A stretch of 64,000 bases of DNA from Deinococcales bacterium (GCA_043775825.1 JAYVRX010000108.1:1764-65763); one strand, 5' to 3'; shown: positions 35,698 through 39,754, numbered from the stretch's first letter. The notes: generated by a model from the letters alone, not told the origin. A program made the numbers and translations.

Positions 35698-35858
35698 AAC
35701 ACATGCTAACGATCAGTACACTCAAGAATCTGAGAAAAACCTCAATAGCTGCCCGTTTCAACCCTCACTTGATACATTTGCTTTTACTCAAACCTCATCA
35801 AAGCTGGCTGTGTGATTTTAAGCACTCGAGAAACCCTGTACCCTGCTATACTTTTCAC

Positions 35859-36356
35859 ATGATAGAGCCAAGTATTGCACTATACGGGGAAGCGTTTGCG
35901 AAAGTTACTGCTTCGCTCGATGAATTACTGACCAAAGCACATGTTCGTTACGCCATGCTGGTAGACCGTAAAGGCTTTGTTCTGGCGCACCGTGAGGCAC
36001 TCTGGGCACCTAAACCGCCGACGCTAGATTCCATCGCCACCCTGATTGCGGGCAACGCCGCCGCCACCAGTGCGCTGGCAAAACTCTTGGGCGAACGCCG
36101 CTTCAACGAACTGGTACACCAAGGCGAACGCATTGGTTTGTACGTCGAAGAAATCTCGGACGAGGGTTTGCTGGTCGTGATTTTTGACGAAACCGCTCCG
36201 ATTGGGCGCGTCAAACTGTTCGCCAAAAAATCCATCGAAGAAATCGGCGGCTTAATTGATTCACTCGGAAGTGTCGAAACCACCAATGCCAACCTCGGTA
36301 ACGACTTTGCCCTCGACGCAAGCGCCTTACTCGACGATTTGTTCAAGGGGATGTAA
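35859..36356 (+). CDS. mglB: Roadblock/LC7 protein MglB
   Basis: Start MIEPS at 35859 after an extended -10 TGCTATACT; [21 protein letters not shown]; coupled to mglA. Confidence 0.85.
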
Positions 36357-36946
36357 TGTCAACCATTAATTTCGCGGCTCGAGAGATCAATTGTAAAATC
36401 GTGTACTACGGACCCGGTGTTGCCGGCAAAACCACCAACCTCAAATGGATTTACAAACAAGTTGACGACAGCGTTAAAGGCGAAATGGTTTCGCTCGCCA
36501 CCGAAGACGAACGTACCCTGTTCTTTGACTTTTTGCCGATAGATTTGGGTACAGTTCAAGGTTTTAAAACCCGTTTTCACCTGTACACCGTTCCAGGACA
36601 AGTTTTTTACAACGCCAGCCGCAAACTGATTTTGCGCGGCGTGGACGGCATTATTTTTGTTGCCGACAGCGCCCCAAATCGTCTTCGCGCCAACGCCGAA
36701 TCCATGCGCAACCTGCGCGAGAATTTGCAAGAATACAACCTGTCACTCGACGAAATTCCCATGATTGTCCAATTCAACAAACGCGACCTGCCCGACGCCA
36801 TGCCGATTGACATGCTTCGCGCTGTCGTTGACCCTAAAGGACAATTTCCCTTTCAAGAGGGCGCTGCCGCAAGTGGCGGCGGCGTGTTTGAAACATTACG
36901 CGCCGTGTCAAAAATGGTACTCGAGCGACTGGCAAAAAGTAAGTAG
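36356..36946 (+). CDS. mglA: Small GTPase MglA
   Basis: [37 protein letters not shown]. Confidence 0.92.
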
Positions 36947-37061: not shown

Positions 37062-38150
37062 CTATTTGCTCACTGCTAATTGCTTCGCTGTCCCCGCCAT
37101 ATTGTACGCCTGCTCGAGCATGACTTCGGTTTCTTCCCAACCCACGCACGCGTCGGTCACGCTGACACCGTACTCGAGTTTGGACTTGTCATGATCGGCA
37201 GGAATGCTTTGCTTTCCAGGGCGCAAGTTTGACTCGATCATCATGCCCACCAGATCGTGGCTGTTCTGCCCAAACTTTTGCTCGAGCGCGTCCGTCCAAG
37301 CGAGGCGCTGCTTGGTGTGGTCGTAAGAACTGTTGGCGTGAGAGCAGTCAATCATCACGGCGGCATTCAATTTTGCGCCACGCATTTTGTCGGCGGCATC
37401 GAGTACGTTACCAGCAGCAAAATTTGTGACATACTCCCTACCATTTCGTCCACCGCGCAAGATGACATGCCCGTCTGGGTTGCCGTTGGTTTGCACCACG
37501 CTCGCCAAACCCTCAGAGTTAATTCCCAGAAAAACCTGTGGGCTGCTCGAGGCAACAATGGCATCCACGGCGACTTGGGCGTTGCCTTCGGTACTGTTCT
37601 TAAAACCAATTGCCATAGAAAGCCCGCTCGCCATCGTGCGGTGCGTCTGCGATTCGGTGGTTCGTGCGCCAATCGCGCCCCAAGCCACCAAATCCGACAT
37701 AAACTGCGGCGCGAACGGATCGAGCATTTCGGTGGCGACACCCAAACCAAGTTCGTTGACTTTAATCATCAAATCACGGGTTTGCTTTAACCCTTCCAGA
37801 AAGTCATTGGTAAAGTTCATTTCTGGGTCATTCATGAAGCCGCGCCAACCAACCGTGGTGCGTGGTTTGTCCACGTAAACCCGCATCAAAATCAGCAACT
37901 TGTCCTCGTACTTTTTGGCAAGTGTTGCCAGTTTTTCGGCGTACTCGAGTGTCTGATGCGCGTCATGAACCGAGCAAGGACCAGCAATTACCACCAAGCG
38001 CGAATCGGTTTTGCGAATGATGTTCCGCACTCCAGCTCGAGCCTTCTCGACGGTGGCTCGAGCGGCTTCGGAGGTTGGGAGCAAAGCTTTGATTTCACCT
38101 GGAGTTGGCAAGGGCGTGAAACTGGCAATATTGACATTCTCGAGTGGCAT
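37062..38150 (-). CDS. 3-deoxy-7-phosphoheptulonate (DAHP) synthase, class I alpha (AroF/G/H type)
   Basis: GPCSVHD, KPRTTVGW, IGARTTESQTHR, GFKN, IDCSHANS, SVTDAC. Confidence 0.92.
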   Translation of the reverse strand: MPLENVNIASFTPLPTPGEIKALLPTSEAARATVEKARAGVRNIIRKTDSRLVVIAGPCSVHDAHQTLEYAEKLATLAKKYEDKLLILMRVYVDKPRTTVGWRGFMNDPEMNFTNDFLEGLKQTRDLMIKVNELGLGVATEMLDPFAPQFMSDLVAWGAIGARTTESQTHRTMASGLSMAIGFKNSTEGNAQVAVDAIVASSSPQVFLGINSEGLASVVQTNGNPDGHVILRGGRNGREYVTNFAAGNVLDAADKMRGAKLNAAVMIDCSHANSSYDHTKQRLAWTDALEQKFGQNSHDLVGMMIESNLRPGKQSIPADHDKSKLEYGVSVTDACVGWEETEVMLEQAYNMAGTAKQLAVSK

Positions 38151-38172
38151 GGTATTTCTCCTTATTTAGTCC

Positions 38173-38196
38173 AAAAAAAATCCCAGCGATGCTGGG
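38173..38196 (-). terminator. Attenuator terminator upstream of DAHP synthase
   Basis: Minus strand CCCAGC-ATC-GCTGGG-A-TTTTTTTT, 22 nt before the start codon. Confidence 0.8.
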
Positions 38197-38215
38197 CGGG
38201 TTTGATAAACTACAA

Positions 38216-38278
38216 TCAACGCCTGCCCGGTGGGAAACCGAACCAATACGCATAAAAATAGCTTGACGTGATTTGCAC
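38216..38278 (-). CDS. Leader peptide MQITSSYFYAYWFGFPPGRR (aromatic amino acid attenuator)
   Basis: GTG 38278 to TGA 38216; 3 Tyr, 3 Phe and 1 Trp within 9 codons; followed by the terminator; too short for the ORF track. Confidence 0.8.
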   Translation of the reverse strand: MQITSSYFYAYWFGFPPGRR

Positions 38279-38284
38279 GCGCTA

Positions 38285-38313
38285 AGCGTGACATGACAGA
38301 CAAAACTTGTCAA
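38285..38313 (-). promoter_or_regulatory. Sigma70 promoter driving leaderless leader peptide
   Basis: TTGACA (38313..38308), 17 nt ending in TG-N, CACGCT (38290..38285), 6 nt, then GTG. Confidence 0.7.
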
Positions 38314-38374
38314 CCCTGGCGCTCGAGCCACAAAAAATGACGAGGATTTCTCCTCGCCATGCACGGTTCAAAAC

Positions 38375-39754
38375 TTATTCCTGAGCTTCAATGCGGTTAA
38401 AGCCTTTTGGCGCTCCGACCTTATCCGCAATCACATTCTCGAGGTACTTCACCACGTTTTTTAATGGCACACGGTTCAGCACATCCTCGAGGAACGCCGT
38501 GACCAGCATTTTCTCGGCAATTGGCTTGGGAATGCCCCTCGAGCGCAAGTAAAAGAGTTCCTGCGCGTCCACAGGACCTGTGGTGCTGCCGTGAGAGCAC
38601 CGCACATCGTTGGCGTTGATCTCGAGTTGCGGCACGCTGTCGGTTCGCGCTTCATCGGACAGCAACAACGTGCGGTTTTTCTGGTACGCATCGGTTTTTT
38701 GGGCGTTCAATTCGACTTTAATCAAACCCGAAAACACAGCCCTTGCCTTGTCCGTCACAACACCCTTGAACAACAAATCTGAGTGTGCTCGAGGTTTGAG
38801 GTGATGCTGAAGCGTGTAATGGTCAAAATGCTGGTCTTTGTCGGCAAAGTACACCGCCAGCATTTCTGAATTCGAGTTTTCAGACAGTGCCGTCTGAACT
38901 TCCGAACGACTCAGCGTCGCGCCCATTGTGACGTACAAACTGTTCAGAGTCGCATCACGCTCGAGGTTCGATTTGATGCGTTGAATGTGCGTGAAACCGC
39001 GACCCCAGTTTTGAATCGCCACGTAACGCAAGTTTGCGCCCTTGCCCAAGAACAATTCGACCACGCCAAAGTTTGCGGCTTTCAAATCTGGGCTGTCCTG
39101 CTCGTCAATGTACGTGACTTTCGCGTTGTCCTCGAGCACCACCAACGTCCGAGAAGCCGTAAACGTTCCTTCCTGGTCGAGGTAACGGAAACCACCGAGC
39201 GGCAACTCGAGTTCGACATTTTTGGGCACGTACAAGAAAAAACCGTTGTCCCAAAGCGCGGCGTTCAGTGCCGTGAACTTGTCTTCGTCTAAATTAGGAA
39301 TCGCCTCGTAACGCTCGAGCGCCTGCGCGGTTGGGGCTGGGTACGCCGCGCCCACGACGCTGTACAAATACTTTTGCACCAATTCAGGATGTTTTTCGAT
39401 GGCTGTCTTTAAATCCGTGAAAATAACGCCTTTTGCCGCCAGTTCCGCAGGTACATCCTTAAAAATCACGCTTGAACCAGAAAGCACAATCCGTCCTGCT
39501 GCGTCCGTAGAGGAGAGACGATCACGAATTTTCGTGGGCAGTTCATCTAGGCTCGAGACTGCTGGTACGGGTTGGGCTGGACTGAAATTCTCGGGTTTGA
39601 ACCGTCGCAGGTTGGTGTACTTCCAAGATTCCACAGCCGTCGTTGGGATTTTACGGTCATGGTAAATCTCGAGGGCGGAAAGTCGGGCGGACTCGAGCCA
39701 TGCGGGTTCGTTGAGGCTCGAGATGGTGAAGGGGGATTGGGTTAATTGGGTCAT
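38375..39754 (-). CDS. sufD: Fe-S cluster assembly protein SufD
   Basis: ESWKYT, AVFSG.I, QKTDAYQ, PQLEI.ANDVRCSHG, FYLRSRGI. Confidence 0.9.
   Translation of the reverse strand: MTQLTQSPFTISSLNEPAWLESARLSALEIYHDRKIPTTAVESWKYTNLRRFKPENFSPAQPVPAVSSLDELPTKIRDRLSSTDAAGRIVLSGSSVIFKDVPAELAAKGVIFTDLKTAIEKHPELVQKYLYSVVGAAYPAPTAQALERYEAIPNLDEDKFTALNAALWDNGFFLYVPKNVELELPLGGFRYLDQEGTFTASRTLVVLEDNAKVTYIDEQDSPDLKAANFGVVELFLGKGANLRYVAIQNWGRGFTHIQRIKSNLERDATLNSLYVTMGATLSRSEVQTALSENSNSEMLAVYFADKDQHFDHYTLQHHLKPRAHSDLLFKGVVTDKARAVFSGLIKVELNAQKTDAYQKNRTLLLSDEARTDSVPQLEINANDVRCSHGSTTGPVDAQELFYLRSRGIPKPIAEKMLVTAFLEDVLNRVPLKNVVKYLENVIADKVGAPKGFNRIEAQE

Follow-up and report, generated by a model that had tools for sequence, protein, structure and literature searches.

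The window, a 64,000 nt stretch of a Deinococcales bacterium genome assembly, harbors on its minus strand a gene (37062..38150; ATG at 38150) whose 362 amino acid translated product was identified as a type I-alpha DAHP synthase of the aroFGH family (PF00793; e-value: 6.6e-72; TIGR00034 aroFGH; Bitscore: 412 against a cut-off of 173), preceded by the directly readable Shine-Dalgarno sequence AAGGAG (38163-38158). A SufBD-like gene (ORF 39754-38375), encoding SufBD domains, is located upstream on the same strand, and its terminator (38337..38360, minus strand; ten pairs, followed by a T run) isolates the promoter described below from read-through. Furthermore, an MglB/MglA-like pair, consisting of genes for a Roadblock/LC7-domain protein and a small Ras/Arf-like GTPase (35703-36946, plus strand), converges on the DAHP synthase gene.

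Upstream of the DAHP synthase gene, the initial annotation had described a TTGACA-N17-CACGCT promoter, a GTG start codon six nucleotides further on, a short ORF, a hairpin and a U8 terminator, and all of these parts are present on the minus strand. The -35 hexamer TTGACA (38313-38308) was read directly, is invariant in the 6/6 loci of the same genus and is also found in g2 and g4, while the 17 nt spacer (38307-38291) ends in TGT, the 'TGn' of an extended -10 element (38285..38293 including the TGT). The -10 hexamer CACGCT (38290-38285), also read directly, matches TATAAT at only two of six positions (A2 and T6), and for this reason the promoter was not called by a sigma-70 consensus promoter scan. 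Six nucleotides (38284-38279) separate this hexamer from the GTG (38278-38276) of the leader ORF, whose first G (38278) is the presumed transcript start. As translated by a program, the ORF (38216..38278; stop codon TGA 38218-38216) comprises 20 codons encoding MQITSSYFYAYWFGFPPGRR, where codons 7-15 (38234..38260) read Y F Y A Y W F G F, seven of them being aromatic. A TAG two codons upstream in the same frame makes the GTG at 38278 the first possible start. Windows with at least six aromatic residues in seven are found 47 times among the 9.09 million six-frame codons of the 4.54-Mb assembly, and the occurrence of one within the ~100 codon positions just upstream of this gene is about a 1-in-1000 event by chance. 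An ATG at 38253, in a different frame (89 amino acid ORF, 38364-38095), was also considered as a start and rejected; this ATG is absent in g2 and g4.

Nested inverted repeats (TGACA-N9-TGTCA and GACAA-GTT-TTGTC) extend over the -35 hexamer and spacer (38294-38312, minus strand). The 31 nt block around them is identical in the 6/6 genomes of the genus, while the six nucleotides before the start codon vary, and the repeats could represent an operator for an additional regulator or be due to chance. The window also carries copies of the hexamer CTCGAG (e.g. at 37947, 38037, 38058, 38142 and 38314), which occurs 28,914 times in the 4.54-Mb genome, 25.7 times the number expected from base composition and about once per 157 bp. 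The hexamers CGGCCG and GGGCCC do not occur in the genome, AGGCCT occurs once and CCGCGG six times, against an expectation of about 1,100 copies each.

Homologous leaders in the order and in Deinococcus deserti

A covariance model (R1) was derived from an alignment (A2) of 12 leaders representing five genera, the leader starts in the relatives being taken as the last start codon before the aromatic run. Exactly one match to R1 was found in each of 46 of the 151 genomes sampled from this order, and the window leader scored 66 bits. By group, matches were observed in g1 (5/5), g2 (2/2), g4 (1/1), g7 (31/35), g14 (1/1) and g8 (5/12), while none was found in the sampled genomes of family f5 (0/36), g5 (0/8) and g3 (0/2). 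In 41 of the 46 cases, spanning five genera, the match is located 20-114 nt upstream of a type I-alpha DAHP synthase gene on the same strand; this isozyme could be identified in 25 of 41 relatives. Without exception, the DAHP synthase orthologs of the relatives are preceded by a short reading frame with a run of aromatic codons, downstream of which lie a hairpin and a U run.

The peptide of the window is encoded in five further g1 genomes, with ATG in place of GTG in one (L003) and the substitutions Y9H and S6N in one, and the changes in codons 3-5 within the window's genus are all synonymous third-position changes. The corresponding peptides are MQHRSGSFFSYWFG in g2, MLDIRGYFYAYWIG in g4, MTGTVYFAGYRLG in g14, and MSAQRAPFFYWFGNHRA and variants thereof in the GC-rich g7. 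Leaders of the MRSRSPFYAYFFTPESAAEGT type precede a more distant I-alpha clade (46% identity) in g5 and g3; these leaderless leaders (L016-L024) have helices of the CGCCG/CGGCGG type, lack a Trp codon and have the 12 nt string TTTTATGCGTAT in common with the window leader. The initial annotation had proposed conservation of aromatic codons upstream of orthologs as a check, and when the 41 DAHP synthase leaders are translated from the first base of the model, codons for F, Y and W are all present in 36. In a further leader, L121, where that base is not in frame, all three are likewise present, while four of the 41 truly lack Y or W.

Rfam leader families include Trp_leader and Phe_leader, and a cmscan of the 37900-38600 region, with E-values up to 10, returned three chance-level matches to unrelated families and nothing relevant. 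A loose survey was also made of 79 upstream regions from at least 80 DAHP synthase loci of many phyla (at most 49% identity). Short ORFs with at least four aromatic residues in seven were found in 32 of these regions, many of which are chance occurrences at that threshold, while at least six in seven were found in nine, all from Burkholderiales or betaproteobacteria records (e.g. MHSPKFYFAFFWFSHRTGGGEANA; L065, L075, L076, L085, L087, L095, L097, L098 and L106). ORFs of the M(T)xRWYAYF type are located upstream of DAHP synthase genes in three Micrococcales records (L046, L092 and L094).

The arrangement of promoter and start codon is likewise conserved. In 43/46 R1 matches, the distance from the end of an nAnnnT hexamer to the start codon is 6-7 nt; of the remaining three, two carry TACACT with an in-frame ATG 6 nt downstream and the third has TATATC. 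The poor -10 hexamers of g1, g2 and g4 are preceded by TGn, with TGT-CACGCT also found in g4 and TGC-GAACCT in g2. Within the genus, the sequence between CACGCT and GTG varies but its length is always six bases, a fixed spacing of the kind that a transcript beginning at the start codon would need. The window transcript is thus probably leaderless, starting at the GTG at 38278. In model organisms, AUG is a better leaderless start than GUG.

Transcription starts have been mapped in Deinococcus deserti, for which the portion of de Groot et al. 2014 (PMC4007540) available to us reports that 60% of mRNAs are leaderless and lists 14 putative leaderless leader peptides. One of these, Deide_18471, is named 'DAHP synthase leader peptide' (MKLRSAFFYWFGVPRA); its transcript was mapped as leaderless, and the transcription start of the DAHP synthase gene, at -158, is the first base of the leader (PMC4007540). 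The R1 match L134 in genome G130 (64.5 bits) encodes exactly MKLRSAFFYWFGVPRA at the published coordinates, and the window element is therefore a homolog of the published one, while genus g7 is in all likelihood Deinococcus. The leaderless reading of the initial annotation agrees both with the fixed distance of 6-7 nt from the -10-like hexamer and with a homolog whose start was mapped at the start codon.

As full-length R1 matches, the two leaders belong to the same RNA family. They share the peptide core F/Y-Y-W-F-G, lie upstream of orthologous I-alpha DAHP synthase genes (54% identity) and show the geometry expected for leaderless transcripts, the -10 hexamer ending 6 nt upstream of the start codon. 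In contrast to D. deserti, the window leader starts with GTG rather than ATG, and its -10 hexamer, CACGCT rather than TACACT, is weak and is assisted by TGn and a perfect -35. Its aromatic run is longer (YFYAYWFGF versus FFYWF), its terminator arms are changed on both sides (CCCAG/CUGGG) and followed by a canonical U8 tail, and its predicted antiterminator is a longer helix in a different register.

In the available portion of PMC4007540, the D. deserti element is given as a listed prediction, without structure, distribution or response. The accessible parts of Seliverstov 2005 and of a Biol Direct 2016 paper contain nothing on DAHP synthase leaders, and no further description of a Deinococcus aromatic attenuator was found in the literature. 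The device itself is already known, from the D. deserti listing of 2014 and from the aroR analogue of Corynebacterium glutamicum. The present analysis extends it beyond the supplementary table of a single Deinococcus species to an uncultured family of that order with low GC content, and adds a model of the structure, a degree of covariation support and a survey of its occurrence (46/151 genomes with the element, 41 of them at a DAHP synthase locus).

Predicted competing RNA structures of the leader

Hairpin 1:2, the anti-antiterminator (38243-38225, minus strand; GUUCGGU-UUCCC-ACCGGGC with the loop UUCCC), forms part of the MFE structure, with a pair probability of 0.99 in the absence of a ribosome. 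It is followed by an intrinsic terminator (38196-38182, minus strand), consisting of the stem CCCAGC-AUC-GCUGGG, with six pairs of which five are G-C, an A and eight U residues down to 38173, ending 22 nt upstream of the DAHP synthase gene. With segment 1 masked, folding predicts an antiterminator in which transcript nt 44-64 pair with nt 73-98 (38181..38235, minus strand; UCCCA:UGGGA, CGGGC:GC-UCG, GGCG:CGCC and UUGAU:AUCAA), with an energy of -20.2 kcal/mol versus -10.1 kcal/mol for the terminator alone. The initial annotation had proposed a different antiterminator, GGGCAGG:CCCGCCC; this pairing exists, but at only -8.1 kcal/mol it is a weaker alternative to the -20.2 kcal/mol register and not the best one. 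The fold of the leader as a whole is not significantly more stable than that of shuffled sequences (z = -1.48), as 19 of 200 shuffles fold as well.

The effect of a ribosome was modeled by folding the first 98 nt with a ribosome-sized stretch forced to be single-stranded, assuming a downstream footprint of 8-16 nt. The probability of the terminator is 1.0 without a ribosome, with a ribosome at the stop codon, or with one anywhere from codon 13 onwards, and falls to 0.02-0.17 only when codons 8-12 (F-Y-A-Y-W) occupy the A site. Which of these five codons are effective varies with the assumed footprint, and the W codon is effective only with a short one, but the effective codons never leave the aromatic run. 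The comparison of terminator and antiterminator folding suggested in the initial annotation thus gives an answer specific to position, in that only stalls at codons 8-12 break the terminator. This equilibrium switch is clean only in genera g1 and g2, while for most of the g7 and g5 leaders the probability of the terminator is high at every ribosome position. The terminators of the latter are too stable for an equilibrium test, and a kinetic, co-transcriptional argument is therefore needed there. By a cruder and noisy measure, the 5′ arm of the terminator is no longer sequestered once the ribosome has moved past the run.

The relatives share a four-segment design. Segment 1, (G)GUUCGGU, contains the codons for Trp, Phe and Gly and is followed by segments 2, (C)ACCGGGC, 3, GCCCGGUG, and 4, CACCGGGC, the last of which leads into the U run. 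In the 46-sequence alignment, which was fitted to the terminated state, 88% of the cells of the terminated-state helices are paired as opposed to at most 63% when the helices are slid, with five pairs changed on both sides. Across the 46 homologs, pairing amounts to 84% for the 1:2 helix and to 92% for the terminator helix, four pairs of the latter having changed on both sides. The 2:3 antiterminator helix, although it lies outside the model, is 86% paired versus at most 52% when slid, with three pairs changed on both sides. The covariation is modest because the core C/G pairs never vary, and such counts are also inflated by the relatedness of the sequences. In the window's genus, the terminator arms CCCGG/CCGGG of the other genera have been changed on both sides to CCCAG/CUGGG, and the canonical 2:3 pairing is therefore weaker there (CCGGG with CCCAG). 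The folding model predicts that the longer antiterminator (nt 44-64 with nt 73-98) takes its place in this genus. This register is predicted from folding, the six congeners being almost identical in this region. The parts, their conservation, the mutually exclusive pairings and the stall window are shown in silico.

Leaders before trpE and a second DAHP synthase gene

The five R1 matches in g8 are located directly before trpE (TIGR00564 for L149; tblastn for all five) and encode peptides of the M(N/K)RFA(V/A)RFWWWPG type (L149-L151, L153 and L154). With filters off, the trpE leader of the window's own genome, MSFRAVNIGWWWFR (L190:1562-1667, minus strand; G000:C72), is a full-length R1 match as well (Bitscore: 23.7; e-value: 3e-4), as is a type-B DAHP synthase leader of g5 (Bitscore: 24.4), and both of these matches begin exactly at the leader start codon. 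The trpE leaders, which are weak to moderate R1 matches, share with the DAHP synthase leader a UGG-UUC-RGG / CCYGGG scaffold, and the two attenuators are possibly paralogous. The codon run follows the controlled pathway across related copies of one scaffold, which is what ribosome-mediated sensing predicts.

The initial annotation had placed the leader at the single entry step of the aromatic pathway. This does not hold, as the genome encodes a second, chorismate-mutase-fused type I-beta DAHP synthase (C157:38742-39827), found in 40 of 41 relatives, with a Tyr/Phe leader of its own. This promoter-proximal leader, MQATSYFF(N/K), is conserved in the window's genus, where it is accompanied by hairpins and the terminator CUUCGGC-GAAA-GCCGAAG-U5, and shows the same layout of promoter, short ORF and terminator, with the codons YFF. 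In the window's genome (locus G000:C157:38564-39827; leader ORF L157:1383-1412) the peptide is MQATSYFFN. The I-beta leaders of g5 are W-containing and of the MQNAYWYTT type, three having been flagged by script and two more recognized by eye, and MKPITCSYWT was recognized by eye in one g3 genome. The other g3 locus, the 14 loci examined in families f3-f5, and genera g2 and g4 showed no I-beta leader. A type II DAHP synthase (PF01474) was not found in this 79%-complete genome.

A genome-wide scan for a promoter, a short ORF and a terminator ahead of a gene with a Shine-Dalgarno sequence returned 38 candidate rows, representing 24 distinct ORF-gene pairs. The annotated rows precede trpE (WWW) and, on contigs C20, C43, C47, C90, C109, C128, C131 and C136 (L187-L196), tyrS (YY), asd (TTTT), homocitrate synthase (KK), metG (three Met codons), ilvB (IILVVVVL), leuA, proS, pheS and leuS, most of them with cognate codons, while two further annotated rows, before the trigger factor gene and carA, lack obvious cognate codons. 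This set corresponds to the leaderless leader peptides listed for D. deserti.

Proposed mechanism and rival explanations

The initial annotation had interpreted the element as a ribosome-mediated attenuator of the DAHP synthase gene, and the ORF, the aromatic run, the terminator and two competing helices are all kept in 41 loci of five genera. We consider it highly probable (roughly 0.85) that it is a classical ribosome-mediated leader-peptide transcription attenuator of the I-alpha DAHP synthase gene, acting on a leaderless transcript. Three parts of this reading are inferred, namely the site of transcription initiation, translation of the leader ORF, and a response to each of the amino acids. 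RNA polymerase would start at the G of the GTG at 38278, as suggested by the promoter geometry and the mapped D. deserti homolog, and a 70S ribosome would begin translation at the 5′-terminal GUG. With charged Phe-, Tyr- and Trp-tRNAs plentiful, the ribosome would traverse codons 7-15 to the UGA, where it would either cover segment 2 or leave, so that hairpin 1:2 reforms; in both cases the terminator (38196-38182 and U8) would form and transcription would end 22 nt before the gene. Where one aromatic tRNA is scarce, the ribosome would stall in F-Y-A-Y-W on segment 1, leaving segment 2 free to engage the terminator region (nt 44-64 pairing with nt 73-98); the terminator could not form, and transcription would continue into the DAHP synthase gene.

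This scheme resembles that of enterobacterial trpL and pheL (Yanofsky 1981; Zurawski 1978), in which, according to the accessible text of PMC11802643 and PMC4007540, the 1:2 and 3:4 pairings together correspond to termination and the 2:3 pairing to read-through, with the control codons in or beside segment 1 and the stop codon near segment 2. The enterobacterial leaders differ in having a 5′ UTR with a Shine-Dalgarno site, in sensing one amino acid, and in controlling terminal branches (trp, pheA) rather than the common entry enzyme. The leaderless poly-Cys short ORFs of mycobacteria, as described in the part of bioRxiv 10.1101/834739 at hand, are likewise enriched in one kind of codon and attenuate a downstream operon, but concern another amino acid and another phylum. 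The only tested analogue is aroR, upstream of the DAHP synthase gene aroF of C. glutamicum, where stalling at mixed aromatic codons raises transcription; the likeness is one of function, the phylum is different and the reported response is to Phe limitation only.

The sensing of Phe and Tyr is likely. The sensing of Trp is plausible but confounded by a structural role of the UGG codon, both G residues of which are paired in helix 1:2 (G-C in 45/46 homologs), so that this codon may have been kept for the helix rather than for sensing. A response to each of the three amino acids is plausible. It is unlikely that the attenuator instead reports general translation capacity or one aromatic amino acid, such as Phe, with the mixed codons reflecting tolerated variation and RNA-structure constraint. 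Such an arrangement would have a precedent in the Phe-Tyr-Phe leader aroR, for which Neshat et al. 2014, as cited in the available text of PMC11802643, found a response to Phe limitation and no effect of Tyr availability, and it would accommodate the UGG codon as part of helix 1:2, the four of 41 homologs truly without Y or W, and the folding results, in which only codons 8-12 matter and W does so only with a short footprint. The retention of F, Y and W in 36-37 of the 41 leaders, even though their GC content differs widely, argues against it, as does the change of the run to WWW in the trpE copies, which indicates that codon identity has been selected for the pathway.

Nucleotide conservation of the core UAUUGGUUCGG...CCGGG is stronger than a peptide would need, as would be expected of a protein- or ligand-binding switch (a riboswitch, or a TRAP/PyrR-like or T-box-like element) to which the short ORF is incidental. 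This conservation is, however, explained by the three overlapping helices, and the ORF, its start codon, a stop just beyond segment 2 and the aromatic run are all retained, codons 3-5 differ within the genus by synonymous changes, GTG is exchanged with ATG, and no Rfam family was matched even at E-values up to 10, making a binding switch very improbable. Least probable is that the promoter and terminator mainly produce a small stable RNA or peptide acting in trans, like rnTrpL/peTrpL of Sinorhizobium, with downstream control secondary: dual roles have been described for a trp attenuator, and reads from the D. deserti leader greatly outnumber those from the gene (51 nt leader, 1792/4344/3794/3363 sense reads; 1080 nt gene, 81/104/68/129; Table S2 of PMC4007540, as far as accessible, from start-site mapping libraries that may be biased towards 5′ ends), but such a role would be compatible with attenuation, the DAHP synthase gene is tightly linked in 41/41 cases (gap 20-114 nt), and no trans target is suggested by the data here.

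The attenuator changes no general principle, but provides a small ORF and a regulatory element for annotators to add. More tentatively, and as a proposal that may well prove wrong, the DAHP synthase and trpE attenuators of the phylum would be paralogs of one scaffold (UGG-UUC-RGG / ACCYGGGC / CCCRGG / CCYGGG and a U run), its sensing re-programmed by recoding of the run (FFYWF or YFYAYWF to WWW), with the two isozymes under differently coded leaders (Y/F/W for I-alpha and Y/F/F for the chorismate-mutase-fused I-beta). The entry enzymes of E. coli are under the TyrR and TrpR repressors, according to the available text of PMC11802643. If the proposal is true, entry into the pathway would here be partitioned between amino-acid-specific ribosome sensors, replacing the isozyme-specific repressors of E. 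coli. Control of the common aromatic pathway in this phylum appears to be exerted by ribosome-sensed attenuation, rather than by repression of the TyrR/TrpR type.
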